DNA of 34,686 nt from a virus (IMGVR_UViG_3300005512_000149:1-34686), one strand, 5' to 3'. Shown: positions 4,833 through 34,686, numbered from the stretch's first letter. The notes: a model not told the origin generated them from the letters alone. Numbers and translations: made by a program.

Positions 4833-6256
4833 CCCATCTCTGCATCATACTCGATGATTGCGCTACCTGCTTTTGCAAAGTCTTGTTCGATGACTCTCTT
4901 ATCAACACTGCCTCTAGGAAGGAATACTTTGACATTAGTACTGTTAGCAAGATTAGCCACCAACTGCATATGAAGCTTGTTGATGCTGTCTTGGAATGGG
5001 CGCACGAAATCAATATCACTTATCGGATATGGATCACGGTCGTGTCGTCCTAGGATAGGCACAATCGGATACTCGTCAATCGGTAAGTAGTAGCTACGAT
5101 ATAGCTGACCACCGATGATGATTACGTGCTTGATCCTTGGAAGCCGAACGGGTCTTGCCTCCATAACGCCATTGTCGAGTAGCACTTGATGTGGCATACT
5201 CTTTATGATCGCAGGCTGCATTGGGATCATAGCACCCGTCTGTGGATCCTGCTGTGGCGGTATTTCTATAAGCCTTGTTTCGGGGTCTTCCGTAGGCTGT
5301 GCCATCTCAAAGAGTTCGGCACCATTACTTGCTGTATCTACAGCGTAGATCTGTTGCTGCCCCGTATTCGGATCACTAAACACAAAAGCTGGCGTTTCCA
5401 TCAGCTGTGCAAAGTCATCGTACAGATCTACCTTTTCCTCACCACCAGACATGGAATGGTGTATGTAATCAACCTTGACCTTGCTGTAACGGTCAATAAC
5501 TACATAGCGTCTGTGGTGGTTGTCATACACACGGTCTCGGCTACGACTCAGATCGTCAACCTTCGTTGAGACAAATTCCTCAATGTCATCGTGTGTAGTT
5601 TGGGCTCTGCTCAGTATAGGCTTGGAATCTGGCCACATACCTAATACTTGCTCACCCGTAAGAAGGTGCTCTACGAGCACATGGCTTGCGTCACGGAACA
5701 GCCTATCACGACTGTTCGGATCAGGCAAGACCTTGAGTGTGTCAACGGCTACAACCTTGATGTCGCCCCGATTGTAATCACTTTCGGGATCAACGTAAGC
5801 CATCAAAAAGCCACGGCCCGTCATAAAGTAGTCATAGAGCGACTCTTTAAGCTGTGCATTGCCATAGCTGTTTGCCCATATGTAAGACATCAGATCGCTA
5901 ATAGCACGTGCTGTCTTAACGTCTGAATCCTCCCGTGCCGTTGCTTGAAAGCCTGGCGGTCTGCCCGTCAATAGACTGATCGACAACTCCATTGCTGGGT
6001 AGATCACATTGATCGGGACAGCCGCCTGTCCACGACTGGCTAAGGTGTCTACTTGTTCTGCACTGAACTGATAACCGTGCGCGTAATCCTTACTCTCAGA
6101 AGCGCGATCTCCCCAAGCGTCCTGTGAGTCACGGTAGTGTCTGTGCAGGGATAACGTCAGAGTGACCTCTTCGTTTGAAGACGTGTCCTCTGTCTCTTCT
6201 ACGTTATCCGTAGGAGAAAACTCTTCGTGTGTATTTGGATCAAATATCTTCTCCAT
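4730..6256 (-). CDS. Portal protein (P22-like), N-terminal segment; frame broken near 4833
   Basis: Follows terL. Motifs GYQFS...LASRGQAAVPINVI, VLPDPNSRD.LF.DA and YPIVP...PYPISD. The last 33 aa after IIEYDAEMG look non-native. Confidence 0.85.
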   Translation of the reverse strand: MEKIFDPNTHEEFSPTDNVEETEDTSSNEEVTLTLSLHRHYRDSQDAWGDRASESKDYAHGYQFSAEQVDTLASRGQAAVPINVIYPAMELSISLLTGRPPGFQATAREDSDVKTARAISDLMSYIWANSYGNAQLKESLYDYFMTGRGFLMAYVDPESDYNRGDIKVVAVDTLKVLPDPNSRDRLFRDASHVLVEHLLTGEQVLGMWPDSKPILSRAQTTHDDIEEFVSTKVDDLSRSRDRVYDNHHRRYVVIDRYSKVKVDYIHHSMSGGEEKVDLYDDFAQLMETPAFVFSDPNTGQQQIYAVDTASNGAELFEMAQPTEDPETRLIEIPPQQDPQTGAMIPMQPAIIKSMPHQVLLDNGVMEARPVRLPRIKHVIIIGGQLYRSYYLPIDEYPIVPILGRHDRDPYPISDIDFVRPFQDSINKLHMQLVANLANSTNVKVFLPRGSVDKRVIEQDFAKAGSAIIEYDAEMGMTCRLYLDLFCLQTDMPYWNTICSCIRWESLTK

Positions 6257-7734
6257 TACTCAACCATCCAGTCGTAAGAGCGCTCCCTTACGATAGGTTC
6301 ATCTGTATTGTTACGAAAGTCGTGATCGCCATATGGCGGGAACGCACCTTTGACGGCATAGAAGAAAGCATCTAGCGTGTCATCGTGCTTGCCCCTTGGA
6401 AAGATCAGTACCTCGTCAGCGAACTCACTGTGAGACTTCTTGATGTATACCTTCTTGCGAGCAAACATAGGTTGTAAGCCTTCAAGCCGCTGAACCTTAC
6501 CCTTGCGTGGTTGGTTCTTAATCGCAAGGCCAGGTATGTACACGCCTTCCAATCTCGTAAGATAGTCACGTAGCATCTCTTGGTAGCCTACGGTTTCTAT
6601 CTGAACCTTAGCTGGCTTGTACTTCCTATACCAATCCAAGATAGCGTCAGCTACGTCCATAGGCTTGATACGCTTCCTTAGGTAGTCAATAACATAGACG
6701 TTCTTGTCCTCGTCCATACCTATGACCATAATGCACGTGTAGTCTGCAGTAGCTCGAACACTACTAGCAGGGTCAACGCCCATAAAAATATTAACGGCGG
6801 TTTTTTCCTTGGTCTGGCTGTCGACGATGTAGCCATCGGATAAATCTCCTTCATAGTACTGCAAGTCATTTTCTCTGAATAGCTGGTCACTATCTCCAAT
6901 CACTTCGCACTGATACTCACGATAGAAAGCGCTTACCCTACCAATCGACTCCAAGCTTGCCTTCTTCTCATACAGCCATTCAAGACTGCGCATCTCTGGC
7001 CATAAAGCCAAGTCATTTCCATCAGCATCCTTATCAATAGCCTTGTAGGATAGCGTCATCCAGTCAGGCATCTGTTTGAGCGTGAATACCACACTACGCT
7101 CTTTTTGTGGCGTACCAATGTTTACAACCTTGCAGTCCCTACTACCCGCAGGTACAAGCCCTTGAAGGATCCAGCGCAGGTTGTCTTCCATACGCTCTAC
7201 CGTCTTGGTATTCTCTTCGTCCTCAGCGTCATCCAAGATGATATAATCGGGACGCATACCATCAATGTTCAAACCACGGACTTGTTGGCCCATACCACGA
7301 CACACAATCATACTACCGTTAGATAGCCGTATGATGTCCTCACGCCAAGCCTTCGCGTTAGCAGCACCTTGATACCCAAACAGATCCTTAAGGTGTGGGT
7401 TGTACTCAAGCTGGTTCTTTATGGTCGTAAGCAGGTTAACCGTATGGCTCCTACTCTTAGATACAAGCAGGATGAACTTGGGACTAGGACGCTTCTTGTT
7501 TCTTAGATCCTCACAAAAGATGCGCCAGAGCGGGAATAGCAATGCACATAGCGTACTCTTTGCGTGACCACGGGGCGCAAGCACATTAAGTTGCTTGACA
7601 TCCAAGTTCGTCATAGCGTCTATAATCTCCCTATGGAACGCAGGACTTTCCGTCTCAAACAACTTGGGAAGACAAGCTTTGGCAAAGTACAGCGGGTCTT
7701 CCACACAACGACGCTGCACTTCTTGTTTTAGCAT
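6256..7734 (-). CDS. terL: Terminase large subunit
   Basis: Walker A-like APRGHAKST, Walker B IILDDAEDE, IGTP coupling motif, RNase H-like MGVDPA and GKHDDTLDA. Confidence 0.95.
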   Translation of the reverse strand: MLKQEVQRRCVEDPLYFAKACLPKLFETESPAFHREIIDAMTNLDVKQLNVLAPRGHAKSTLCALLFPLWRIFCEDLRNKKRPSPKFILLVSKSRSHTVNLLTTIKNQLEYNPHLKDLFGYQGAANAKAWREDIIRLSNGSMIVCRGMGQQVRGLNIDGMRPDYIILDDAEDEENTKTVERMEDNLRWILQGLVPAGSRDCKVVNIGTPQKERSVVFTLKQMPDWMTLSYKAIDKDADGNDLALWPEMRSLEWLYEKKASLESIGRVSAFYREYQCEVIGDSDQLFRENDLQYYEGDLSDGYIVDSQTKEKTAVNIFMGVDPASSVRATADYTCIMVIGMDEDKNVYVIDYLRKRIKPMDVADAILDWYRKYKPAKVQIETVGYQEMLRDYLTRLEGVYIPGLAIKNQPRKGKVQRLEGLQPMFARKKVYIKKSHSEFADEVLIFPRGKHDDTLDAFFYAVKGAFPPYGDHDFRNNTDEPIVRERSYDWMVE

Positions 7735-7735
7735 A

Positions 7736-7954
7736 TTAGCTTAAACTAAAATAGCGCTTCATAAAGATATACTCTCCCGTATCATCATCGGTAAACGAAG
7801 TAGACGACTCACCTATACCACCAAGTATTTCATTAGCTATAACAGCAAGCTCTACAATGTTAGCGCCCTTATGTGCCTTAAAGGCAACACCAAGACACAA
7901 GAACAAGTTTTCTGGATCAGTGCCCCAAAACTCTTCTATTTGGATTTCGTGCAT
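7736..7954 (-). CDS. Hypothetical protein
   Basis: 72-aa ORF filling the gap between the DUF5675 gene and terL on the late strand. Confidence 0.5.
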   Translation of the reverse strand: MHEIQIEEFWGTDPENLFLCLGVAFKAHKGANIVELAVIANEILGGIGESSTSFTDDDTGEYIFMKRYFSLS

Positions 7955-21653: not shown

Positions 21654-21913
21654 AGTGGAGTGCGTGTGACATCGAGAGACACAAGACCTTCGTTTACATA
21701 AGGAACGGTATAGGGTCTTGTGGTATCAAGAGAGTACCTGTTAAAGGGTACGGAAAGCATCAGACATATGACTTTGAGTATATGCCTTTTGTATTCCGTA
21801 CTATGGAAGAAGCCGAATCAACATCAAAGAGATTAAACCGATGGAGGGAAAGACCACTTACCAAGAAAGAGCGCTTAGAACACTATCACAGAAGGTTGCA
21901 ACGCATACCGTAA
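21650..21913 (+). CDS. Hypothetical basic protein
   Basis: GTGA overlap with the HTH gene stop suggests a start at 21650. Overlaps mazG by 73 nt. Confidence 0.5.
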   Translation: MKWSACDIERHKTFVYIRNGIGSCGIKRVPVKGYGKHQTYDFEYMPFVFRTMEEAESTSKRLNRWRERPLTKKERLEHYHRRLQRIP

Positions 21914-22341
21914 GCGCAAAAAGATGGGAGTCCTTTAGACATTTGTTGTTCGGTATATCCGAAATGGCAGATGATCTTAAGCGAGACATCTTCTACGGGC
22001 TTGGTGAACCACAGCCTGGGTACAAGATGATGCCGCCTATGGATACTCACGAAGCTTATATGTACCACGCAATCCTTGGTATCATAAGCGAACTCGGGGA
22101 ACTGTATGACTCTGTCTTGATGAGAGACAGGCTTAACACCATAGAAGAGCTTGGTGATCTTGAATGGTACCTAGCTCTTGCTCGCAAGGCTGTGAGTACC
22201 ACGCAGGATGAAGTTCAAGAAGCTAACATCAAGAAGCTTATGGAACGCTTCCCAGAGAAGTTCAACGAGAAGGACGTTGTGAATCGAGACCTTGACGCTG
22301 AACGGGATGCCATAAGTATGGTGATGAACGCACAGAAGTAA
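21841..22341 (+). CDS. mazG: MazG-like nucleoside triphosphate pyrophosphohydrolase
   Basis: YQERALRT, LGIISELGELYD, IEELGDLEWYL and ANIKKLMERFPEKF. Confidence 0.85.
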   Translation: MEGKTTYQERALRTLSQKVATHTVSAKRWESFRHLLFGISEMADDLKRDIFYGLGEPQPGYKMMPPMDTHEAYMYHAILGIISELGELYDSVLMRDRLNTIEELGDLEWYLALARKAVSTTQDEVQEANIKKLMERFPEKFNEKDVVNRDLDAERDAISMVMNAQK

Positions 22342-22493: not shown

Positions 22494-25400
22494 CTATTGC
22501 GACTGAACTGCGTAGTTGAACTCCATCACCATTGACCTAATGGCGTTGTTCAACTCTTCATCGCTATTACCGCTAACAACAGTCCCCGATTCTGAGTCAA
22601 GCATAGCGTCTTCCCGTTCTTCCCTTATTTCCTTGCGTCGCGCACGTTTCTCTTTGTCCGTCATCGCAGGCACAGCAAGTCTTGCGCTACCGAACGGCAT
22701 CTGATACAGCTCATCTACACTGTTGAGCCTGTTCATTGTCCTTGACAGCGCCATATAGGGTAGTCCCGTCAAGAACTCTATGCTCATCTGTGGTGATTCC
22801 TTGGCTCTGTACAGGTTCTTAACCATAGACCCGAACGGTATCAAGGACGTTAGGTCGTTCTGCAAGAACAGTTCAAGATCTTCACTACTGTTGAGTAACA
22901 TAAGATCAAACAACGCCATACCACCCTTGACTGGCGTAGTAAGTATCCTAAGCCCAGGAGGTGCTGCCAAACCTATGATGTTTGCAGGGTAAGGAAGGAT
23001 ACCAAAGAAAGCTTTCTCGCGCTCTTCCTCGTCACCGAAGAGGTACTCAGATAGACTTGTAAGCGCGCCAAATCCAACGGGCGCTACTGCTTGGAACGTA
23101 GAGTATGGAAGCGTAGACGCAAGCCCTAAGACCATCAGATCTGCTGTAAGCGCCGTACGCAGTCTTTCAAACTCTGGCGTGTCCTGCCTAAACCCGAGCG
23201 CCTTAGCTTGCTGATACACGTCCCTACGGAAGCGTACGCTGTTCCAAGCATACAGTTGGAATCGGGAAAAGATTTTACCGATAGGCGTGGCTGATGCGAT
23301 AGGACGGCTTGCACTATTGTACAAGAACTGAGAAGCGTCTGATCCTTTTTTCGCAAGCTCAATCAGCCTCGGGTCGTTGTACCTTGTAGTACGGTCTATG
23401 TTATAGACTTCCCTTGCTTTAAGGTAGTGAGCCCAGAACGCGTTGGTACGTACCTGCCGCTCAGAGAACTGCATGAACCAGCCAGCCGTAGATAGTAGCT
23501 TGTCTTGCAGACCACGGTTACGCAAGATGGTTCGTATCTCAGAGTCTTTGGCTAAAGGATTCTGCTTAATCAGCTTAAGCACATCCTTAAGCGCAGCCCT
23601 ACCTATTACGGTTTGGAACGCAGGTGTTAGGTTTGCTTCCTTCTGAATAAAGGTTTCAATCACACCATAGCGTTCTGCCTCTCTTATCCTATCTGCCGTG
23701 GTAGCAAGGTTGGGGCTGATCCCAGCCATATAGTCTGATCTCGACGCTCTGATGAAGTTCCTAAACCCAACAGAGGCCATAGTCATAGCGCTACCACCAA
23801 CAAGGTTGTTCGTAAGAGACCTTGTGTTTGCAAGCAGTGTCGCAAGCTGATACTTAGCTTCAGCCCTACTGAATGACCTAAGCCAGTTGGAAGCACGCTG
23901 TTTGGCAACGCGCTCTGCTTCGGCTTGTGACATACCGTTCTCTACGTCGCGATCAATCTGTCGCTGTACGTACTTGCCACCGAAGAACCTCCGATCAAAG
24001 GTTCTCCATTTCTCAAACACGGCTTCGTCACTGGTAAAGAACCCTACGGTTTTACCCTTTGTACCATCGGATGAAGCTACGCCTTCTGTTGTAAGGCTTG
24101 ATATACCAAGGTAGGACTGAAGGTATGTACGCAGGTAGTCCTTCCATTCTACGATAAGGTTGGGTCTAATCTGATTCTCAGTAACAGCCCGTGACTCAAA
24201 ACGCTTGACCGTGTCTTGCCCAAGTAGGATAGACACAGCCTTGGCTTGTGCCTCTACCATAGAACGAGAGTAGTCCGTAAGCACAGTAATGTCTGACGAC
24301 CAACCTGGGAATGGTATAAAGCCACGCGCCTTAAGGTTGGACGGGGTTCTTACGATAGCTTCTGTGAAGACTGGATCGGTACCATCACGCAAGGGTTCGT
24401 AACTATTGACAATAGCCTGCAAGTCTTGCGACAACATCTCCGAAGAGATCTTGCTCTGCATGATTAGGTTCTTAAGGAACACGGCCATACGGCGCTCATC
24501 AGCAGGGTTCTCAGGCTTCTTCAGGCCACGCACAAACTTATCTACCACGGCAGGGTCGTGGTTCATACGCGCCCAATACACGTCACCGTCGCGCTTGCCT
24601 ACGGGGTTGTATCGCGTCTTGTACCTTCTTGCTGCGTATATGTTGTCTACTTCTTCGGCTTGAAGTATGTTGACTTCGTAAGCTTCATCGTCATCGCCAC
24701 GGTTTACGTCTCGGCTTGGATCCTTTTTCCATACCACGTTCTCAAACGGGTGATTGCCTTGATACTCAAAGCCACCTACATCTTCCCGTATGAAACGGTT
24801 GAGTTCATCAAAGCCATTGACACGCTCGACCTTGTACTCGTTTTGTCTTCTTACGCCTTGGATTGGCCTTTCGCCTTCCTCGCCTTGAACAATCACGTCT
24901 TCTCTTGACGTAATCTTGCGATACAGTTCTACGGGTCTGTTCAGCAAGCCAGCTTCACGCAGGTCACGAGACGAGCCTGTCACGACGATACCATCATCAC
25001 CCTCAGCAAAGCTTAGGCTTGGGTGGCGCTCAATGTAGTCACGCTCTTGTGCCGTAAGACGACTTACAAGTATCCTATTCTGATGGTAAAACTGTACTTG
25101 CTGTTCATACATCAAGCGCTGTACGCCGTTGTATGTAAGGTTAGGTAGCTTCCCGTTCTGCGCCATATACTTGCGCAGTTTGTCTACAGACGCAGCGTAG
25201 TTTATATCACCAGCGCTGTCCATTACCATAAACTTGGCGTCACGTTTAGGCACATTGCCTTCGCTATAGTCGCCAATGTAGTCTTCGTAGACAAGCTTGT
25301 ATATGTCCGTAATACGCTTGTTGATAGCGCCAGCTTTGTCTCTTTCACCAAGAGTGCCCATCATTTCCTCGGCGCTTAGTCTGATAAACTTGTCGCCAAG

Positions 25401-28400
25401 ACCTCCCATCTTGAAGCTGTAAGAACGATCTAGTTCAAGTATGCGCTTGTAGTCAGCGTATAGATCTCTGAAGCGCATGATCTCTTCTGGTACTTCTACG
25501 CTTCTATTGCCGATCTTTATCGTGCTCTCGGTAGATTCGATGGCATCAATCAGTTGCTTCTTGCTAAGACGTAAGCCACCATCTCTTTCCTTGCGCAGGT
25601 AAGAGTTCATCTCACGAATACCAACGGCGATCTTGAACATCGTATCGCCGTCTTGATTCCTACCTTGGTCACCTATATCGCCAGCAAGATCGTTGATTAG
25701 TCGATCAAACACAGAGAAGTTCTCAGACTCTGCTTCATTCGCAAGCTTGAAGGTATTCACCATCTCGTCGCCAGCAGAGTACACGGGTCTTACGGGTAGG
25801 TTCTTAACACCATCCTTAGTAAAGACAAGCTTTCTGACCTTATCGTTTCCTATTATAAGGTCATTCGCCTTCATAGCATTAGCTATGCTGTCTGGGAAAA
25901 AGTACGGCAACCATTTGGATAGTAAGCCGTCCTCGCCAGCAGCAGCACGATTGACCAGATTCTGCAAGATACCACGGTCAAACGGCTTCTCGAAGAAAGC
26001 CAAGAACCTATCTATTGAATCACGGTCGGCGGCACTCAGCGCTGTGTATGGGCCAAACAAACTTGCCTCACCCGTAGCGTAAGAGAACACTTCGTTGAAG
26101 TGCTCAAGTAGCTGTGGGTTACGGTTAAACACGGCAACCATACGGTCGCGAAGCTTCTGCGCTTCTTGTCCAGACTTCTTGCTTGGATCAAAGACACCAG
26201 CCTCATCAACAGCCCCCTTGATTGCTTCTATGTTCTCAAGATGGCCAAGCATACGCTTGCGTTCATCAAGACCGTTCACACGGTAAGCGCGCTCAGCCTC
26301 TGCGTTTACTTCAAAGCCAGCTGCCTTGGCTGCTTGTGTCGCAGGATCAGATACAATATCTGAATCAACACTTGTTGACGGACTGTCGCCCATTAGGCTT
26401 GGTCTTGTCACCCTTGGCGCAGGCTCAGCTACTGTTGCTTTAGTTTCTGGCTTAGGACGTAGTATAGTAGTCTTGCCAGAGTAGCCAGTCTCAACAGAAG
26501 AGATAAGCTCAAAGTACATTCTTACGTCATCGGGACGTATACCATAGTAGCGACGTATGGCTTGACGTAGGTTAGTGTCAAGCACGGGGCCCGTCTTGGT
26601 CTTCTTAAGACCGTTGATAGGACTGTAGAGTAGCATCATATAGTGACTGCGTACATCACGTCCTACCGCAGAAAGCCTTTCAAATATGTTGTCTAGCCTT
26701 GCGTAAGCTCTTTCGATGGCCTCTACATCACCACGGTTGGTGGCATCATTAAGCGCGTTCTTGATCTCAAAGATCTTGTCGTTGAACTGCTGCATCGCAG
26801 CGAGCGCTTCCTTGTCGTTTATATTCTGTTTAGCTTTAATCTGAGAGAGCGCACGCTTGCCCGTCTCAGTTAGGGCCGTAGCTATGGTAGACGCTTCTAT
26901 GTCGCCGTTAGCTTGCCAACGGCTTTTGTAGTTTGTAGCAGCGCCGAATGCAGCACGACCACCACCAACAAAGGTTTGTATAGGACTTCCTTCCTTGCCA
27001 GACTCATTCCTAATCCTTTCAGCCATACGTATGATACCTTCGTGAGGCATAAACGATGGACGCAAGTTGTTTGGATTAGGGTTGTTTTGCCGAAGCTTGC
27101 TGTCTGATAGCTGACTACTCTTTGTTGGTGCTAACTTGTTTATATCAAAGGACTTACCTAAAACAGATAGCGACCTATAGTATATGTTTGACTTCTTAGT
27201 TTTAGTTTTAGAAAAGTTGGATATACTATTAAGGTAGTCGTATAGGTTTTCTGCCGTTCTCTTACCGCTGTCAAGGCTAATAGCGTCTTCCATAACAGCA
27301 ATACGAGACGCTTTAACAGACTTTGGTTCTACGGGAGGCGACAGTGCTGGCTGCCCTGGGCTTGCCTTTTCACTACCAAGATTAACAAGCTTGTCTACAA
27401 CAACCTGCATTCTTTCCTCGAGACTGTTCTTCATCGGAACGTCAGCAGAGTCGGCAGACCGCTGTAATAAGTCGTTGTTTATCCTATAGGTTTCGCGTAC
27501 TCTGTCTTCAAATCCGTCTACACTAAACCAAGACCTAATTACGTATTTATTTCCGAATAGGTCTACTTTTACACTGCTATCTATGTGTACAACGTCCTTG
27601 CCAGCCTTCCTTGCTTGCGCTACTTTTTCCCTTAGTACATCAATAAGCTCTTGTGCGCGCCTTGGAAACAGTGCGTGAGCGCCAATACCTTGGTTACCGT
27701 GACGTGCGCTTATACCAGAGTAGACATTAGTAACGGGGTTCAGCACAGAGAACTTGCTGTCGAATCGCTCTTCGTCACGTATGTCAAATATGACATCAAG
27801 CTTTGGATCCTTAACTGGCGTAGGCACATCAGAAACCAAGGGATCGTCTGACTTCTTGAGTACGCCCGTGTCTGCAAACTTGCGATAATAGTTTCGGACG
27901 GGGCCAGACTTGCCGCCCGTCTTGTCCATATCGAATATGAAGAAAGCCTTGTCACCATCAAGGTCAGCGCCACCAAGCTTGTTCATATCGAAGCCGTGCA
28001 TGTAAACGCCATAGCCTCGCTGATTAGTAAACCCTGCAAGCTTTAGGTTTCGTGCGCCTTCTTGTGTAGCCATAGGCACACGAATGTAGAGCGCTTCAAG
28101 CGCTTCTTCCATCTGAGTCTTAATTGAAGGCGCGGCCACTTTCTCTTTGGCAGGCTTACCAAAACTAGCGCCAGCAAATCTATCCTTAAATTGTTGCTCA
28201 TTAGAAATATCCCTTCCCTCAACGTTCCTAAACGTCCAGCCCTTAGGTGCTAATATCGTTGTAGGAATACCTAATCTAAGTCCTGCCTTAGCTCCAGCCT
28301 CATCAAACCCAGTTTGCCCGCCAGTTCTAATAGAAGTTATTTTGTTTTTAAGATTCGGGGATTCGATAACAGCTTTTAATAAATCATAGGTAAAATCATC

Positions 28401-31400
28401 AACTTGTTTTTGAGTATACTTGCCTTTCATTGTATATATGCCATTGCCAGCTATATTCAATGTCTTGGCATTAACAGAGTTTAGTGTTTCTACAATTTTA
28501 TTTGATCGCTTGTCTATGTCTGATAATTTATTAGCGTCAATAGGAATATACTTTTTGCCTTGATTTAGTACTGAAGATTTAGTGAGTCTTTCTCCAGCAC
28601 TATTAAAGTCCACCGCTATTGCAATGGTAGCATCAGCAGAAGCATTTTTAATAGTTCTGTTTCTGTAGCCTCTGGTTTGCTCCTCTTGAAAATCTATTTG
28701 GGAAACAGCAATGTCTTCTTCTTTGGCAGGCCCAATAGGTAGCTCTGCCCTAGGCTCTTCCTTTTGTACAGCTTTGATGTAAGCATCCCAAGCATCTCCA
28801 AGCTTTGTGTCCTTACCCATAAACGGGATAATGACATTCCGCATTCCAGAATCAAGAACGACGTAACCCCTTGGTATCTGCCCCTTGGGCATCGTCTTAG
28901 CAAGCTTCCCGTCATACATCTTATCCGTAGGAAGGGACTTGGATAACTGTAAGATACTTGATATGGCTACCTCACTTTGGAGTGGGTACATCTGCGACTG
29001 GCCACCGTAGTCAAAGCGTGGTCTTGTAACCCTACGGTTTATGTAGTTGATTATAGAGCGCTCGATGTAGTTACCAAAGCTTGTGACAAGCGTAGGGCTT
29101 ATCGCAGAGGGCTTGTCTAGAATTGCCTCAAGCTGACCACGAGCGCCAGCCATATCAGCGGCAAAGCTCATGTCGTCTACGCTTGATAGCCCGTCATCAT
29201 CTTGGCCAATCTCTTCGTCTGCTGCAACAATCTTGTTGCCTTCTTTCGGTGGTCTACCGAATATTATTTGGTGCATCGCGTGCTGATAGACTTCCAAGTT
29301 AAATGGATTCTTACCAAGCACATCTTCTACAAGAGACTGTATCGGAATGTTGTCTATATCAAAGTCAGACAGATCACCATTCAGATAGCGACGATACGCC
29401 TCAGCATCTCCCTCGATAGACTCAGATATATACGAATCCATCACGCTGGATACAGCGCCTTCATCGTCTCGTATAGTAGTCAGTAACTGTAGTGGTATAT
29501 TGTTCTTGCGTGTAGGTACACGAACACCCTTTACAAACTTAGACGTAATCGCAAGAGACCTGTGCTGAGAAGCACCAGGGTTCATTCTGAACGCACTGAA
29601 TGGTGTGACGTAAGTCTCGGGGTCTGTTGTTACTGCGCCCTTGTCGTCAAAGAAGTCTATGGACTTAATGACACCGTTCTCATCGGTAGATGTCTTTCGC
29701 TTGTACAGCTTGCGTGTACCACGGATCTTGCTTGACGTATCCATCACGATCATCCCTATGCCGCCACGACCCATCCTTTCCATTTGTTCAGAAAGATCGT
29801 CGCTTGCGCGCAGGAAGAACGCCTTATTAAAGTCCAAGCCGTCTACGCCGTTGTTGTGTACCGTAGATAGCTTAAGGCCACTCTCACCACCAGACTGACC
29901 CATAAGATCAGCCATTCTATCGTAGAGATTGTTGTGCACGTATACGTAGCCGTCATACACTTCTTCTACGGGCTTACCGTCTGCGTACTTGTATGGTACG
30001 TATCCGTCCATATCAAGATCGCCTTGTACATACATTGTACGCACACCACCTACACGGCCATAGGTAGGTACTTGCGCTCTCCTGACAGATGGGGCTGCCT
30101 CTCTTTCTGTGTCTTGTAGTATGTTGCTTATAGCATCTTGTCTCTTGCCGAACACACCACCGACAGGTACAGCGCTTGGGATCTCGCCTTCTGTTGGTAC
30201 ATACTCTGTTCGATACTCCCTGCCGCCAGCAGTGGCTGTACCAGTAACACGCTCTACATCAGCAGGATCTCCAAGCTTGTAGGTTTGCCAGCCACCTTTG
30301 ACCTTGGATATAAAGAACTGTCCAAGCTCTCCGAAGTCGTATCGGTAGCCCATTGCAGGTACTGACCCTATGCCTTCTACGTTAAGGGTTAGTCCTTCTC
30401 GACCCCTACGGTTGCTACCACCCGTGTACGCAAGATCTCCAAATCGCTTCTTAGCCATGATGGGCTGTATAGCAATGCGGTCAAAGAACGAAGCTGGTAC
30501 AGGCATATTACCATCGGTAATACCCTGCATACGTTTGTTGAGATCAGCTGCGTTCTTGAATAGCTTGCCTTCACCGAAGAACATACGCTTGAGTGAGGCA
30601 GCTATATCCAGTGGATCTGCTGTAAGCGTAGGCTGGTCGTAAATACGACCAAGCATAATCATATTGTTCAGAAGCGCATTCTTCCGAAAGCTTCTTTCAA
30701 CACCAGATGGAGTAAGCAACGAGCCTACTTCTACCATCTTTCTGATTTCGCTCTCGCTTACGCCAGAATCTCTGAGCCTTGAGTATATGTTGCGCAGTAA
30801 GGGATCAACTTCGTTTGGCTTAACGCCAAGTCCTTCCCAAACATATCCCTTGGTTACAATAAGCTGACCACTGTCTTTCCTAAACTGAAATGGTATCCAG
30901 CCTTTGTTCACAAGGTCTTTTACAAGAAGGGAAGCATCGCCATCTATGCCCTTCTCTGCAAGCTCTAAATCTTCGTAGACCTGTTTAATACCAGTAAAGG
31001 AATCTGCTGCGCCACCCTTTGTCCAAGTTACTCTCTGCCCTTTTCTTTCTCCAAATAGAGCAATATCTAGATACCGTACCTCAACACCAGCGTCTTCAAG
31101 TACGGCATCAAGCAGGGTCGTGTCGTAGTCTTCAGATATTTTGTCACCATTAGGAAGAACATTTTCAAAGTCGTCTCCCTTAGACCCAGCCGTGTGTAGA
31201 GTTACATTTACTTCTTCACCCTCCTTATTCCTTACGTATACAAGTTTTTTCTTAGCTGTCTTGGTAGGACTAATCTCACGAAGAAGGGCTTGTACTATAT
31301 CAGACTTGCCTGAGTGCGTATCTATATAGTCCTTCAAAGCACTATATCGGTTACGAGTCTGAACAAATCTGCGTGTCTCAGCCTCAGTAGCGCCCTTCTT

Positions 31401-33110
31401 TATCTCTGCGTCTGCTGGGTATAGAGACAGGTCATCAAAGAATTTAGTAAGCTCTATGTCGTTGAACTTGCGCGTTCCTTCCTTGATCTCACTAGCAAAC
31501 TGCCTAATCTTGCCACCGACAAGCGCTAGGTCTTCTGGGCCAACGAAGGTAGCAATACGCTGTAATGGCTTCTGAAGCGTAAGTGGTACGTCGTGATCTT
31601 CAAGCGTCTGTCGTATGGAGGCGTTTTCTACAGCGTCTGATCGTGTACCTTCTAGGATACCATCAATCAAGAACTTGGTCTTGCCAAGCTCATCAAGCGC
31701 TTCGTAAGCAGCCTGCTCGTTGATTTCCCTTGCATTAGGATCAGCCGTAGGCTCTTCCGTCTTAGTGCCTACGCCAAAGGACTCTAGGGCTTCGCGCTCT
31801 GCTTCTGCCGACCGTGACTGCTCAGCTTCGGCAATAGCCTCTGCTTCCATATTGGTCGTCTCTTCGTCGATACCTTCCTTGACACGTTTGATGAAAGCCA
31901 TCTCAGCGTATGAGTTGGCAGCATCAGCATCGTTGCGTGTAGCGGCATCAATCGCAAGATTACGAAAGTAGTTAGAGTCACCTGCGGCATCAGCGGCAGA
32001 TATAAGGCTTATGGCCTCACCAAGACCTACCGTTTGCTGAACACCTTCTTTGTCTACGTAGTTTATGTTGGCGGCAAGCGTAAGGTCGAACTGCTCTTTA
32101 ACGATCTCTTGTACGTCCGTAGGCAGATCAGCAAACTCTGGATCCTTCATCGCCTGTGCAATGGCCGTTCCCTTGAACATATGGGAAGTACCCTGCATCT
32201 TACGAGCCATATATCCATTGGCTCTAATCTCGTTGAAGGGCAGATCGTCTGCGCCCAAGAGACCACCAAGTAGCGTGTGATATACGGTTATCGGAAGCGG
32301 GTCATCACGCAAGCCAGAATAAGCCCCAGAATAGGCCGCATTCGTCACGGCACGTAATGCTATGGCTGTACCACCCTTGCCAGGTATTGCGTTCGATACA
32401 GCCCTAAATACGGCGTTCTCAGTGGCACCTATAAGACCAGCCTCGCCAGCTTCTGAAAAGCCGTAAGGAAGGGTAGATACACCAGAGGCAACACCACCGA
32501 TAAAGCCTTCACGTAGCGCCGTGCCTGCTCTTGTTTCAGACAAGAACTTGACAGCGTTAGGCGACAGTCTCTTGCTTAGAGCGCCATAAGCTTTTTCTGC
32601 TACAAGAAACGGTACACTTGTGACACGCGTGTACGGCTTGCCGAACATCTCGCCCTTAGATATAAGGGAAGATCCAGCCCTGCCCGTAGCGCCAATGACT
32701 TTGGCTGCACGCTCGGTAGCACCAAAGGCTTTTCCAGCGGCAAGCACACCACGGGTAAGACCATTGAATCCTATCTTGGCTACTGTACCAACACCTGGGA
32801 TTATACCTAGAAAGCCAAGTACGTTACCTACGTTTCTAGATATAGCCTCAGCTATGTTGTCGGGATCATCGCCAGCTGGAAGGGTAGTAAAGCCTTGGAT
32901 AAACCCAAGACCAAACTGAGACAATACGCCACCGAAAGAGAAGTCGTTATTGTCACGCGCATCAAACTGTGCCTGCTGTAGTGTAAACAGAGACGGCGGT
33001 TGATCTACGCCTTGATACAAGCTAGAAATTGGCTCGTAATCTTGTGGCGCAAAAAGATCAGGGTTTGTCTCAAAGACACTACGAAGAGCGAAGATTTCGT
33101 CTTCGTTCAT
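22494..33110 (-). CDS. Giant polyvalent internal virion protein containing a two-barrel (DPBB) RNA polymerase and an inserted SLOG domain
   Basis: 3,538 aa. RFDYGGQS, YIRVP and LGGADLDGD match beta-prime-type barrel motifs; YDG, LK, NK and TSSK form a plausible second barrel. G/A-rich N-terminus; helical C-terminus resembling ejection/large polyvalent proteins. Confidence 0.8.
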   Translation of the reverse strand: MNEDEIFALRSVFETNPDLFAPQDYEPISSLYQGVDQPPSLFTLQQAQFDARDNNDFSFGGVLSQFGLGFIQGFTTLPAGDDPDNIAEAISRNVGNVLGFLGIIPGVGTVAKIGFNGLTRGVLAAGKAFGATERAAKVIGATGRAGSSLISKGEMFGKPYTRVTSVPFLVAEKAYGALSKRLSPNAVKFLSETRAGTALREGFIGGVASGVSTLPYGFSEAGEAGLIGATENAVFRAVSNAIPGKGGTAIALRAVTNAAYSGAYSGLRDDPLPITVYHTLLGGLLGADDLPFNEIRANGYMARKMQGTSHMFKGTAIAQAMKDPEFADLPTDVQEIVKEQFDLTLAANINYVDKEGVQQTVGLGEAISLISAADAAGDSNYFRNLAIDAATRNDADAANSYAEMAFIKRVKEGIDEETTNMEAEAIAEAEQSRSAEAEREALESFGVGTKTEEPTADPNAREINEQAAYEALDELGKTKFLIDGILEGTRSDAVENASIRQTLEDHDVPLTLQKPLQRIATFVGPEDLALVGGKIRQFASEIKEGTRKFNDIELTKFFDDLSLYPADAEIKKGATEAETRRFVQTRNRYSALKDYIDTHSGKSDIVQALLREISPTKTAKKKLVYVRNKEGEEVNVTLHTAGSKGDDFENVLPNGDKISEDYDTTLLDAVLEDAGVEVRYLDIALFGERKGQRVTWTKGGAADSFTGIKQVYEDLELAEKGIDGDASLLVKDLVNKGWIPFQFRKDSGQLIVTKGYVWEGLGVKPNEVDPLLRNIYSRLRDSGVSESEIRKMVEVGSLLTPSGVERSFRKNALLNNMIMLGRIYDQPTLTADPLDIAASLKRMFFGEGKLFKNAADLNKRMQGITDGNMPVPASFFDRIAIQPIMAKKRFGDLAYTGGSNRRGREGLTLNVEGIGSVPAMGYRYDFGELGQFFISKVKGGWQTYKLGDPADVERVTGTATAGGREYRTEYVPTEGEIPSAVPVGGVFGKRQDAISNILQDTEREAAPSVRRAQVPTYGRVGGVRTMYVQGDLDMDGYVPYKYADGKPVEEVYDGYVYVHNNLYDRMADLMGQSGGESGLKLSTVHNNGVDGLDFNKAFFLRASDDLSEQMERMGRGGIGMIVMDTSSKIRGTRKLYKRKTSTDENGVIKSIDFFDDKGAVTTDPETYVTPFSAFRMNPGASQHRSLAITSKFVKGVRVPTRKNNIPLQLLTTIRDDEGAVSSVMDSYISESIEGDAEAYRRYLNGDLSDFDIDNIPIQSLVEDVLGKNPFNLEVYQHAMHQIIFGRPPKEGNKIVAADEEIGQDDDGLSSVDDMSFAADMAGARGQLEAILDKPSAISPTLVTSFGNYIERSIINYINRRVTRPRFDYGGQSQMYPLQSEVAISSILQLSKSLPTDKMYDGKLAKTMPKGQIPRGYVVLDSGMRNVIIPFMGKDTKLGDAWDAYIKAVQKEEPRAELPIGPAKEEDIAVSQIDFQEEQTRGYRNRTIKNASADATIAIAVDFNSAGERLTKSSVLNQGKKYIPIDANKLSDIDKRSNKIVETLNSVNAKTLNIAGNGIYTMKGKYTQKQVDDFTYDLLKAVIESPNLKNKITSIRTGGQTGFDEAGAKAGLRLGIPTTILAPKGWTFRNVEGRDISNEQQFKDRFAGASFGKPAKEKVAAPSIKTQMEEALEALYIRVPMATQEGARNLKLAGFTNQRGYGVYMHGFDMNKLGGADLDGDKAFFIFDMDKTGGKSGPVRNYYRKFADTGVLKKSDDPLVSDVPTPVKDPKLDVIFDIRDEERFDSKFSVLNPVTNVYSGISARHGNQGIGAHALFPRRAQELIDVLREKVAQARKAGKDVVHIDSSVKVDLFGNKYVIRSWFSVDGFEDRVRETYRINNDLLQRSADSADVPMKNSLEERMQVVVDKLVNLGSEKASPGQPALSPPVEPKSVKASRIAVMEDAISLDSGKRTAENLYDYLNSISNFSKTKTKKSNIYYRSLSVLGKSFDINKLAPTKSSQLSDSKLRQNNPNPNNLRPSFMPHEGIIRMAERIRNESGKEGSPIQTFVGGGRAAFGAATNYKSRWQANGDIEASTIATALTETGKRALSQIKAKQNINDKEALAAMQQFNDKIFEIKNALNDATNRGDVEAIERAYARLDNIFERLSAVGRDVRSHYMMLLYSPINGLKKTKTGPVLDTNLRQAIRRYYGIRPDDVRMYFELISSVETGYSGKTTILRPKPETKATVAEPAPRVTRPSLMGDSPSTSVDSDIVSDPATQAAKAAGFEVNAEAERAYRVNGLDERKRMLGHLENIEAIKGAVDEAGVFDPSKKSGQEAQKLRDRMVAVFNRNPQLLEHFNEVFSYATGEASLFGPYTALSAADRDSIDRFLAFFEKPFDRGILQNLVNRAAAGEDGLLSKWLPYFFPDSIANAMKANDLIIGNDKVRKLVFTKDGVKNLPVRPVYSAGDEMVNTFKLANEAESENFSVFDRLINDLAGDIGDQGRNQDGDTMFKIAVGIREMNSYLRKERDGGLRLSKKQLIDAIESTESTIKIGNRSVEVPEEIMRFRDLYADYKRILELDRSYSFKMGGLGDKFIRLSAEEMMGTLGERDKAGAINKRITDIYKLVYEDYIGDYSEGNVPKRDAKFMVMDSAGDINYAASVDKLRKYMAQNGKLPNLTYNGVQRLMYEQQVQFYHQNRILVSRLTAQERDYIERHPSLSFAEGDDGIVVTGSSRDLREAGLLNRPVELYRKITSREDVIVQGEEGERPIQGVRRQNEYKVERVNGFDELNRFIREDVGGFEYQGNHPFENVVWKKDPSRDVNRGDDDEAYEVNILQAEEVDNIYAARRYKTRYNPVGKRDGDVYWARMNHDPAVVDKFVRGLKKPENPADERRMAVFLKNLIMQSKISSEMLSQDLQAIVNSYEPLRDGTDPVFTEAIVRTPSNLKARGFIPFPGWSSDITVLTDYSRSMVEAQAKAVSILLGQDTVKRFESRAVTENQIRPNLIVEWKDYLRTYLQSYLGISSLTTEGVASSDGTKGKTVGFFTSDEAVFEKWRTFDRRFFGGKYVQRQIDRDVENGMSQAEAERVAKQRASNWLRSFSRAEAKYQLATLLANTRSLTNNLVGGSAMTMASVGFRNFIRASRSDYMAGISPNLATTADRIREAERYGVIETFIQKEANLTPAFQTVIGRAALKDVLKLIKQNPLAKDSEIRTILRNRGLQDKLLSTAGWFMQFSERQVRTNAFWAHYLKAREVYNIDRTTRYNDPRLIELAKKGSDASQFLYNSASRPIASATPIGKIFSRFQLYAWNSVRFRRDVYQQAKALGFRQDTPEFERLRTALTADLMVLGLASTLPYSTFQAVAPVGFGALTSLSEYLFGDEEEREKAFFGILPYPANIIGLAAPPGLRILTTPVKGGMALFDLMLLNSSEDLELFLQNDLTSLIPFGSMVKNLYRAKESPQMSIEFLTGLPYMALSRTMNRLNSVDELYQMPFGSARLAVPAMTDKEKRARRKEIREEREDAMLDSESGTVVSGNSDEELNNAIRSMVMEFNYAVQSQ
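28144..28731 (-). other. In-frame AT-rich SLOG (YpsA/MoCo-carrier-like) domain insertion flanked by a 12-bp direct repeat
   Basis: TCTTTGGCAGGC at 28144-28155 and 28720-28731 (576 nt apart). Motifs YRNRTIKNASADAT, TLNIAGN and IRTGGQTGFDEAG. Confidence 0.75.
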
Positions 33111-33122
33111 GCGCTAATTACC

Positions 33123-33920
33123 CTATTCTGATTCTTGTTGTTGCGTTAAGCCAGACATATTAAGCGACGAGAATGCTGGAAGACCTACGTCCAAAAGAGC
33201 CCTGTCTACCATTCCCAGTACATTCTGCCTTTGAGTTTCATATTTGCTTTCAGTTGGCACGGCCTGAAGCGCAGAGCTAAGACTTGCATAAAGAGACGCA
33301 GGGTTGACATAAGCCGCTTCTATTTGCTCTTGCCTTAAGCCTCTAATTGCTGATGACAAGCTTGAGCCATAATTAGTAAACCTTTCCTCTGGTATGACTT
33401 CTGACACAATTTGCCTACTTCCAAAAATTGGAGCCCTTGTGCCGCCTGGAGTCCAAGGCTGGTCATATGTTGTTACATCTGGTGTAAAGTCTGCCTGACC
33501 AAGAAGCCTATTAAATGTAGAAGCTGTCTCTATCGGAGCCCTAGTCATCCTAAACTGATAAGCCCTATATGGGTCTTGTTGTTCAGGCTGCAAACTAATA
33601 AGCTGAGCTGGAGTAAATGTTGTTGTTACTTGCTGGCCGCCCCTTGTAGTAATAGTGGCCTCTCTTGATAGGCTTCTGAGATAGTCTTGATACTCTTTTT
33701 CCGTATCAAACTGTTCTCGTCTTAGTGCAACGTCTTGTCCCATTAGACCAATGCGCTCTGCATCTTGGGCTTCTGAGACACCAGCCGCACGAATCTGTTC
33801 AGCAAGAGCGCGTTCGCGTAGTTGTTGTGCTTGCTGTTGAAGGGCAAACTGTCTCTCTTGTTCTCGCCTCTGATCCATTGCAGAGACAGAGGTCATATAC
33901 TGTTCGTACAAACTAGCCAT
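33123..33920 (-). CDS. Putative internal virion (ejection) protein
   Basis: 265 aa with Q/R/E-rich N-terminal helix, directly upstream of the giant gene. Confidence 0.6.
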   Translation of the reverse strand: MASLYEQYMTSVSAMDQRREQERQFALQQQAQQLRERALAEQIRAAGVSEAQDAERIGLMGQDVALRREQFDTEKEYQDYLRSLSREATITTRGGQQVTTTFTPAQLISLQPEQQDPYRAYQFRMTRAPIETASTFNRLLGQADFTPDVTTYDQPWTPGGTRAPIFGSRQIVSEVIPEERFTNYGSSLSSAIRGLRQEQIEAAYVNPASLYASLSSALQAVPTESKYETQRQNVLGMVDRALLDVGLPAFSSLNMSGLTQQQESE

Positions 33921-33921
33921 T

Positions 33922-34686
33922 CTATCGCATCATTTGAGGGAAGTAAGCAGACGGGTCAAATCCAATAAGGTTTTGTATTGGAAACGAAGACGGAACTGGC
34001 GATGGCGTTCTCAATGGTATCTGACCCAATCCCATTCCTTGGTATCGACTTGTTCCAGCTAAAGCGCCAAGCATTCCAGTCTGCGCCATTGTTGGCCCAA
34101 CCTGCCCCATTCTTGGGTCAAGCATACTCATACTTCTTCTCATTGTAATCGGAGAAAGAACTGGTGCGCCAGCAACTCTTTGTGATGGCCCGTTTGATGG
34201 TAAGCCATAACCACCACCACCAGCTATAGGCAACATTCTGTTTGGTATTGCAGGCGCAGTAAAGTCTCTGAGCATAGGAACGTTTGGCATCATCCCAACA
34301 CGAGAAGGCGCGGGCAATGGTTCAGGCATAGACTGTGGCACGGAGGTTCCAACGGGAATGTTTTGTAATGGTGCGCCCATAAATATGCCCTCAGTGCCTG
34401 GCATTCCAAGCATCTGAAGGTTTAGCGTGTCTGCTTCTGGAATAACATCAGTAGGCGCAACGGGCGTATCCATTAGTGCTGCGCTTTGATTACCATAAGC
34501 ACTAGCCATATTCTGTGCTCTTTGCCCATCCATCATCCTACGAATACCAACATCCAAGGCAACACCACCAATGTCTCGCATCGCGCCACCGAGTAGTGAC
34601 TGCGTATCACGCGCTTGGTTCTGCATAGCTTGCGCTTGGAAGGCGCGCTGACGACCCGTTTCAAGGGCTCCTAAGTAGGCGTTACT
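33922..34686 (-). CDS. Putative internal virion (ejection) protein, partial; M/P/G/Q-rich low complexity
   Basis: Frame stays open from 34626 to the window edge (SNAYLGALETGRQRAFQAQA-MQNQ...). Confidence 0.6.
   Translation of the reverse strand, partial: SNAYLGALETGRQRAFQAQAMQNQARDTQSLLGGAMRDIGGVALDVGIRRMMDGQRAQNMASAYGNQSAALMDTPVAPTDVIPEADTLNLQMLGMPGTEGIFMGAPLQNIPVGTSVPQSMPEPLPAPSRVGMMPNVPMLRDFTAPAIPNRMLPIAGGGGYGLPSNGPSQRVAGAPVLSPITMRRSMSMLDPRMGQVGPTMAQTGMLGALAGTSRYQGMGLGQIPLRTPSPVPSSFPIQNLIGFDPSAYFPQMMR

Follow-up and report, generated by a model that had tools for sequence, protein, structure and literature searches.

Alternative SLOG and NADAR-like Domains at One Loop of a Predicted Two-Barrel Virion RNA Polymerase from an Uncultured Marine Phage

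The viral DNA record IMGVR_UViG_3300005512_000149:1-34686 (34,686 nucleotides (nt), analyzed as a whole and called the window here) contains a gene for a giant protein that is predicted to be a single-chain, two-barrel RNA polymerase of the virion. In this report, we describe a loop of this protein that holds an AT-rich SLOG domain in the window, a different, NADAR-like domain in proteins that are 96% identical elsewhere, and only nine residues in a third allele. The same site thus has different contents in otherwise near-identical proteins, and the loop is likely an exchangeable slot. We consider it rather probable that the slot is a site for exchangeable counter-defense cargo, co-injected with a polymerase that is predicted to be packaged, and the domains found there would likely be enzymes or binders that act in the first minutes of infection against ADP-ribose-based host defenses. 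Polyvalent injected proteins with variable domains are already known; the polymorphism of the slot (SLOG, NADAR-like, or empty) is new here. The features at the slot are as follows.

28113..28766, minus strand: polymorphic cargo slot at its widest replaced span, with SLOG here and a NADAR-like domain, no cargo, or further unread fills elsewhere (allele and contig comparison)
28170..28706, minus strand: permuted cpYpsA-type SLOG domain, residues 1469-1647, AT-rich and free of cysteine (Pfam, PHROG, PDB, and model)
28720..28731, unstranded: 12-bp direct repeat, copy upstream in the gene, PAKE 1461-1464 (repeat search)
28144..28155, unstranded: 12-bp direct repeat, downstream copy, PAKE 1653-1656, its end adjoining the junction of the NADAR-like allele at 28142 (repeat search and allele alignment)
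22494..33110, minus strand: giant open reading frame (ORF) of 3538 residues, predicted virion two-barrel RNA polymerase, free of cysteine (ORF scan and model)

Outside the slot, 3208 of the 3337 positions of P0122 and P0128 (ENA) are the same as in the window protein; inside it, each carries a different domain of 130 residues, and 455 nt stand in place of 28115-28755. Contigs from 8 of the 20 marine runs in which the region was found were then compared with the window. Allele calls from these runs are reported as occurrence, and contig depths were not used as allele frequencies. An empty allele was found in five of the eight runs (X1, X2, X3, X7, and X13), where the joint 28112>28767 leaves 27 nt for 654, in frame, and thus nine residues. 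The joint 28114>28756 was found in six of the eight, and the four that could be read hold 455 nt between the two ends, exactly the length in P0122. Loose ends in X2 and X3 spell the end of the P0122 domain, and an allele that is NADAR or of NADAR length was detected in all eight runs. The SLOG allele was detected in X3 as a 151-nt piece with one difference, together with the flanks; for the seven other runs, where reads do not cover the SLOG, this counts as evidence only where contigs join across it. None of the contigs from the eight runs spans a SLOG junction. Other fills, which could not be read, were found at the slot in X1, X7, X9, and X17. No close relative of the slot flank was found among viral contigs, and no fragment of the upstream flank was found among short proteins.

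An earlier note on this DNA, made from the sequence alone, had described a foreign and recently gained module and had proposed a search for homologues with an empty site or with other domains. Both kinds of allele were found, and the module is dispensable in near-identical phages. Elsewhere in the gene, an acidic connector loop (window 29156-29239) is replaced in several marine runs, and loose ends at window 27272-27638 mark an alternative segment near residues 1825-1945.

The composition of the insert differs from that of the gene around it. The GC content was determined to be 31.7% over 28321-28620 and 36.7% between the repeats, with 48-50% in the flanks and 47.6% for the gene; the earlier note was accurate for the insert (about 32%) but placed the flanks too high, at 52-57%. 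The fraction of G or C at third codon positions (GC3) is 49 of 179 codons (27%) in the insert versus 1586 of 3336 (48%) in the rest of the gene (Fisher p 8e-8), and the sliding window that the note had suggested gave the insert as the lowest 179-codon GC3 stretch of the gene. The preference for AAA and TTA codons that it had reported was borne out, with AAA:AAG at 10:7 in the insert versus 45:151 elsewhere and TTA at 5 of 11 leucine codons versus 16 of 269. A second and shorter low-GC patch is found at window 27110-27260 (33% GC over residues 1951-2000, rich in Lys, Ser, and Asn) and is common to P0122.

The coordinates and the translation also agree with the in-frame block of 576 nt, bounded by an exact 12-bp repeat and read as PAKE...PAKE, that the note had described. 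The repeat TCTTTGGCAGGC is exact at 28144-28155 and 28720-28731, 576 nt apart and in frame, and both copies encode PAKE. Such a repeat alone is ordinary, since the whole gene holds 12 exact 12-mer repeat pairs. Its presence at both allele borders is unlikely to be due to chance, because a common 12-mer was found in only 30 of 20,000 random pairs of 90-nt windows from the gene (p ~0.002). The repeat had been described by the note as a flanking duplication, with empty-site alleles that have a single PAKE as the thing to look for. Its reading as a target-site duplication was not supported. The empty alleles read R/K-E/K-G-S-E-N-V-K-D, and all of those seen lack PAKE, as do the flanks in P0122; none of the joints in the eight runs removes exactly 576 nt. 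The exchanged segment, ~28113-28766, is larger than the repeat-bounded block. A target-site duplication by a transposon was rejected for these reasons, and the PAKE repeat is probably a recombination joint, a short in-frame linker repeat.

The identification of the insert (residues ~1456-1656) as a SLOG domain by the note was supported by several methods. The Pfam family cpYpsA (PF12694) matches with an E of 1e-12 and 48.3 bits, against a curated cutoff of 26.2, and phrog_10774 matches along the whole length. The motifs YxxRTxxNA (1482-1490), NIAGN (1552-1556), and GGQTGFDE (1597-1604) are intact, and the insert carries all of the residues that are invariant in an alignment of 92 sequences. 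The structural model from these sequences has a pLDDT (predicted local distance difference test) of 96.8, and its best match is PDB entry 3imk with a Z of 9.6, the next being 6.7; the root-mean-square deviation (rmsd) is 2.9 over 107 residues, with model residues 1-115 on 3imk residues 49-157. In a Foldseek search with the same model, 3imk ranked fourth among weak matches of the Rossmann type. The segment G1601-F-D1603-E1604 agrees by motif, not by superposition, with the GxD/E substrate-binding signature described for the YpsA clade (PMC6459960), and the aspartate is invariant in 92 of 92 rows.

The sequence of 3imk matches the insert in two swapped pieces, with 3imk residues 54-137 on insert residues 13-96 and residues 5-42 on 128-165. 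The permutation reported by the earlier note is therefore real relative to 3imk, but it is not special to this insert. GGQTG comes last here, not first as in the cpYpsA family, and this order is equal to that of phrog_10774, whose clade also occurs as stand-alone genes, in phages of Vibrio and Pseudomonas. The permuted phage clade is large, with 592 matches among proteins of 107-343 residues and 3038 representatives at an E of up to 0.001. We thus rejected the possibility that the permutation was created by the insertion event, since the same order is normal for this clade, stand-alone genes included. The domain resembles cpYpsA SLOG proteins in its fold and motifs and differs from 3imk in the position of GGQTG and in being embedded in a loop of a polymerase.

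The domain found in the slot of P0122 matches phrog_1017 (E 7e-8) and the NADAR domain of P0149 (phmmer E 1e-7), which is itself above the Pfam cutoff. A pair of residues, E-x6-K, is invariant in six of six NADAR-like rows and, as judged from sequence, has the same spacing as E36 and K43 of T4 AdfN (PMC11257639). The NADAR family acts on ADP-ribosylated DNA (PMC11257639). AdfN (T4 gp30.3; PMC11257639), the anti-DarT factor of phages, is a stand-alone gene, in contrast to the allele found here, which is shorter, divergent, and fused within the predicted polymerase. The nearest NADAR-like relative (72% identity, L323) lies at the end of a giant protein of 25% GC. The ESM Atlas gave no usable match for this allele. 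Among the loci of the wider family, a profile of three NADAR sequences gave no matches, and a later profile matched L154 (E 6e-9) and also L036, the latter being circular because it is in the alignment. The theme of NAD and ADP-ribose proposed for the SLOG is strengthened by an alternative allele that is NADAR-like.

The window also encodes a terminase, a P22-type portal, an SU10-type capsid protein, and a primase-helicase (Pfam and PHROG), and a gene for a MazG-like pyrophosphatase at window 21841-22341, with a possible function in nucleotide counter-defense, converges on the polymerase gene. The giant protein is predicted to be a single-chain polymerase with two double-psi barrels and a connector. 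The parts of the predicted fold that bear on the slot are listed here.

29511..30047 (borders approximate), minus strand: predicted first (beta-like) double-psi barrel, residues ~1022-1200 (alignment invariants, model, and QDE-1 match)
28761..29024, minus strand: N-terminal half of the DxDGD barrel (strands 1-2) with a hairpin and a helix into the slot, residues 1363-1450 (model)
27936..28124, minus strand: C-terminal half of the DxDGD barrel, residues 1663-1725, with the RVP motif and the catalytic DLDGD (alignment and model)
27951-27965, minus strand: catalytic DLDGD, residues 1716-1720 (alignment)

A model of residues 1015-1810 was built from 79 family rows, with a mean pLDDT of 69 that is high in the barrels and low in the insert. 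The first match from Foldseek was 6vr4, the virion polymerase gp66 of the crAss phage phi14:2 (E 3e-4). In the VIA comparison, QDE-1 gave a Z of 17.4 (rmsd 5.1, 328 residues aligned, model 7-743), followed by P74 gp62, RDR2, gp96, and 6vr4 at 12.0, 11.4, 10.4, and 9.2, respectively, and the catalytic-barrel domain of Pol IV and of the vaccinia polymerase aligns with model residues 349-738. A profile search of PDB sequences with the polymerase core gave chance-level matches only. The residues D1716, D1718, and D1720 and, in the first barrel, the lysines K1080, K1096, and K1128 are invariant in 80 of 80 family rows, the invariance of RVPM and GGADLDGD being built into the search pattern. D1053-G1054 of the first barrel is also invariant in the alignment.

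The earlier note had correctly placed the block between an FDYGG motif and R.P/DxDGD motifs; it lies between RPRFDYGG and RVP..GGADLDGD. It had further placed the block inside the catalytic barrel. This is true of the sequence span of the barrel (residues ~1363-1725), but in the model the insert is part of a hairpin-helix-loop-helix excursion that leads from strand 2 to strand 3, and not of a strand. The insert is thus inside the barrel in sequence and probably beside it in space. In cellular polymerases, the corresponding position would be that of the "dock" domain, close to where the RNA exits. Within the polymerase model, the insert has no alignment depth and is misfolded at low confidence, with ferredoxin-like structural matches, and the model therefore does not place it with respect to the active site.

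Like gp66 of phi14:2 (6vr4; bioRxiv 10.1101/2020.03.07.982082), the protein is predicted to combine two double-psi barrels with a connector in a single chain, and the spacing of R-x-P...DxDxD is the same. The crAss polymerases have Ile or Val where the canonical Gly is found in DLDGD here (bioRxiv 10.1101/2020.03.07.982082), and the window differs from crAss-like phages in its SU10-type capsid protein and P22-type portal and in the lack of a sequence match to the polymerases of cultured phages. The four matches of the capsid protein and the top 15 of the 754 matches of the terminase are not crAss-like.

No cysteine is found in the giant protein of the window, in P0122, in the capsid protein, or in the two genes directly upstream, whereas the portal, terminase, and helicase have 4-8 each.

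33123..34686, minus strand: two Gln/Ala-rich genes directly upstream of the giant ORF, no cysteine, likely to encode more ejection proteins (cysteine count)

Pfam and PHROG searches with these two genes gave no match. Across the wider family there are 10 cysteines in 310,053 residues, with none in 104 of the 112 representatives listed, some of which are truncated, and none in 8,119 residues of 35 inserts. Likewise, no cysteine was found in 13,499 residues of SLOG domains from 73 giants versus 92 in 18,113 residues from 97 short SLOG proteins. The loss of cysteine would reflect transit through the periplasm. Cargo proteins of crAss phages are packaged and must partly unfold to exit the tail (PMC10172136); delivery into the cell has been described for gp66 (bioRxiv 10.1101/2020.03.07.982082).

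Loci of the wider family were collected by motif pattern (at least 119 viral and at least 120 metagenomic), and 160 ORFs of 1000 residues or more fall into at least 112 clusters at 80% identity. The polymerase apparently defines an undescribed, uncultured family of marine phages with contigs of up to ~56 kb. No match to the family motif was found among prokaryotic genome contigs. The lineage of the window is an outlier, with ~20-26% identity to the rest of the family. The loop described here is empty in 105 of the 106 representatives with enough upstream sequence among the matches listed (103 by pattern, and L122 and L123 by eye). The exception is L026, where an unrelated fill of ~95 residues is found, with a homologue in the preceding loop of L008. 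In addition, 81 lineage-specific segments from the 112 clusters were listed, and these include eight cpYpsA SLOG domains, two DUF4326, two DUF7831, and six GNAT-like domains (Pfam). The segments cluster at hot spots, notably ~70 residues after RVP.

In L003, L017, L029, L036, L041, L049, L050, L079, L134, L141, L147, L177, and L196 (~locus 6200-7800 or the mirror of it), this second hot spot just behind the catalytic barrel is occupied by domains of 150-540 residues, among them SLOG, DUF7831, DUF4326, phrog_9995, and some without a name. Additional sequence is nested in the SLOG of L017 and L050. The same permuted SLOG is found ~800 residues upstream of RVP in L167, and a DprA-like SLOG is found elsewhere in the protein of L008; the permuted SLOG gave no sequence-level match to this domain of canonical order. 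Inserts of ~200 residues that resemble GNAT acetyltransferases are found near the first barrel, ~435 residues before RVP, in L016, L031, L040, L063, L068, and L159. Several segments lack a profile match, and by eye we take L145:4129-4893 to be ADP-ribosyltransferase-like (R-S-E motifs), L041:4318-4887 and L155:4753-5286 to be zincin domains with HExxH, and L029:6178-6768 and L138:3595-4569 to be ASCH-like.

The earlier note had proposed a candidate undescribed "armed" virion polymerase. The combination of this SLOG with a polymerase is not unique; the permuted clade proved to be a frequent passenger of crAss-type polymerases. Among 131 newly listed top matches to the SLOG profile, 73 are proteins of at least 1500 residues, and the crAss-type motif is found in 32 of these in its strict form and in 44 in a loose, DxDxD-type form. 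Of 69 distinct SLOG domains in viral loci, 47 are in ORFs of 1000 residues or more. The closest copies are 77-78% identical, on contigs with a GC content of 26-28%; of the first four, three are inside giant ORFs. GC3 is 0.03-0.22 in the 12 nearest rows examined. Most of the copies in the large proteins are C-terminal. Two cultured phages are among the carriers. In PhiCrAssBcn2 (WCF57538.1; L241 8878-16704), the permuted SLOG is found at residues ~85-260 of a DxDxD polymerase, near the N-terminus, and in cr10_1 (QOR58745.1; L242 up to 9657), it is near the C-terminus of a giant protein. The SLOG is unannotated in both of these Crassvirales giants. A direct repeat of 12-23 nt common to both SLOG flanks was found in 13 of 80 loci, often in low-complexity linkers, a count for which no null was computed and which AT-rich DNA inflates.

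From these results, the following sequence of events is proposed. Cassettes would come from an AT-rich cargo pool of crAss-type polymerases and would enter by recombination, either in the conserved flanks or where short linker repeats occur in frame. In the predicted fold, the slot is in the excursion that links strand 2 of the barrel to strand 3, so the barrel could still close. The protein would be packaged and then ejected partly unfolded, as are the cargo proteins of crAss phages, and any domain fused to it would thus reach the cytoplasm before phage genes are expressed. There, the NADAR-like allele may strip ADP-ribose from DNA bases after an attack of the DarT type, and the SLOG may bind or cleave a molecule of the ADP-ribose type. 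Differing defenses among hosts would keep several alleles in the population.

Several results weigh against this reading. The P0122 domain falls below the Pfam cutoff for NADAR (E 0.0035, 18.1 bits versus 35.1) and is without the C-terminal D-x-x-W-G of its relatives, and the 455-nt allele of the runs is tied to NADAR by its length and breakpoints, its letters being unseen. To our knowledge, no activity, ligand, or phenotype has been reported for the permuted SLOG clade, and chemistry of the YpsA type is a prediction in print. Among the 81 segments listed, 63 hold none of cpYpsA, DUF4326, DUF7831, or GNAT, and the presence of GNAT, zincin-like, and unnamed inserts means that the cargo is not ADP-ribose-themed only. 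A tblastn search of 50,697 records of cultured phages gave no match for the polymerase core of the family. The cysteine counts come from related proteins and are therefore not independent of each other, and fragments are found among the short SLOG proteins. A tree of the SLOG domains, made by a quick method from 55 rows, with each near-identical set among the 80 loci represented once, resolved no donor and no link between L167 and the window, and no starred set holds the window; L248 and L260, which are mid-size or short ORFs, are mislabeled as giant in it. Finally, the SLOG allele is rare (one of eight runs) and most family members have no cargo at the slot, which also fits weakly selected passengers.

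A stronger form of the proposal can be imagined, in which the loop acts as a tool holder. Populations would swap ADP-ribose-removing enzymes from other phage families, the polymerase would clear lesions or signals from its own template early, the SLOG, NADAR-like, and empty alleles would be a balanced polymorphism matched to host defenses, and the permuted SLOG would be a new class of enzyme interchangeable with NADAR. We regard this as possible but rather unlikely.

The cargo might instead act in cis, removing ADP-ribose marks from the template or editing RNA 5' ends of the NAD or ADP-ribose (ADPR) type during transcription. The position of the slot in the excursion of the catalytic barrel itself, as seen in the model, the second hot spot just behind this barrel, and the NADAR-like nature of the commonest allele, given the activity of NADAR proteins on ADP-ribosylated DNA (PMC11257639), are all in keeping with such a role. 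In most crAss-type giants, however, the same domains are terminal or far from the barrel, with no SLOG inside the barrel span in any of the 32 strict-motif proteins or the 80 viral loci with the motif in view, and many SLOG copies are stand-alone genes. Since the same domains sit elsewhere or stand alone, the position of the slot looks permissive and not required, and we think a role in cis is unlikely.

Tolerated passengers, that is, AT-rich fragments that enter a permissive loop by recombination and then drift, bringing little benefit, would explain why empty alleles coexist in five of the eight runs, why the SLOG allele is rare, and why the loop is empty in the distant clusters listed. This explanation is likewise unlikely, as the fills are whole in-frame domains with intact family motifs and no cysteine, they come repeatedly from one functional theme, and extra cargo needs to be packaged and ejected.

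It is quite unlikely that the SLOG is an allosteric sensor that binds a host signal derived from NAD or ADPR and switches early transcription on or off. SLOG domains of ThsA sense cyclic ADPR, SLOG-regulated fusions with nucleic acid enzymes have been proposed by Iyer et al. (PMC9503650), and the insert flanks a helix that leads into strand 3 of the barrel. Long linkers of low confidence are modeled on either side of the insert, however, and an unrelated NADAR-like fold or nine residues can replace the SLOG at the same site in near-identical phages, which leaves no time for a co-evolved coupling. An assembly chimera or a self-splicing, intein-like element with no real fused allele is highly improbable despite the flanking repeat and the missing bridge across a SLOG junction, since the segment is in frame and stop-free, its junctions fall at the same loop as those of two other alleles, and the SLOG piece of X3 occurs with its flanks; an intein was rejected, as neither Cys/Ser..His-Asn splice ends nor a Pfam or PHROG match to an intein or an endonuclease was found.

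Polyvalent injected proteins of phages, which include N4-like virion RNA polymerases fused to ADP-ribosyltransferase (ART), lysozyme, PBECR, and metallopeptidase domains, were described by Iyer et al. in 2017 (PMC5512222). The protein described here is likewise large and probably injected, and its early-acting RNA polymerase carries enzymatic passengers that vary among relatives and are unrelated to one another. The N4-like proteins have a T7-like polymerase, in contrast to the two-barrel polymerase found here, in which the cargo is in the span of the catalytic barrel and alleles are swapped within one population. Pfam searches with the window protein gave no match to the zincin metallopeptidase or LPD-repeat hallmarks.

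In the available main text of PMC5512222, SLOG, NADAR, and YpsA do not occur. In 2022, Iyer et al. (PMC9503650) reported that the phage domains SLOG, NADAR, Macro, and DUF4326 co-occur, typically as stand-alone proteins, and suggested that they act against ADP-ribose derivatives at an early stage of infection; the word "crAss" is absent from the accessible text of that paper. Cargo domains are not described for gp66 of phi14:2 or for the cargo proteins of PhiCrAss001 in the accessible portions of bioRxiv 10.1101/2020.03.07.982082 and PMC10172136, SLOG and NADAR were not found in those of PMC12386605 and PMC13232231, and the polymerase passages of PMC7886860 and PMC11054128 name no such fusion. 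We thus found no report of two-barrel virion polymerases that carry SLOG or NADAR cargo, or of this phage family, in the literature consulted, although figures, supplements, and subscription papers may list fusions.

The swap of alleles at one site is a rare functional clue for a widespread and uncharacterized clade of phage SLOG domains. Exchange with a NADAR-like domain points to ADP-ribose chemistry and names substrates, and the question is testable now because the cultured phage PhiCrAssBcn2 carries the same SLOG on its polymerase. The excursion of the catalytic barrel tolerates domains of 130-200 residues and is a candidate fusion site for the delivery of proteins by phages. For the phages themselves, these results would extend the idea of the polyvalent protein to two-barrel virion polymerases.

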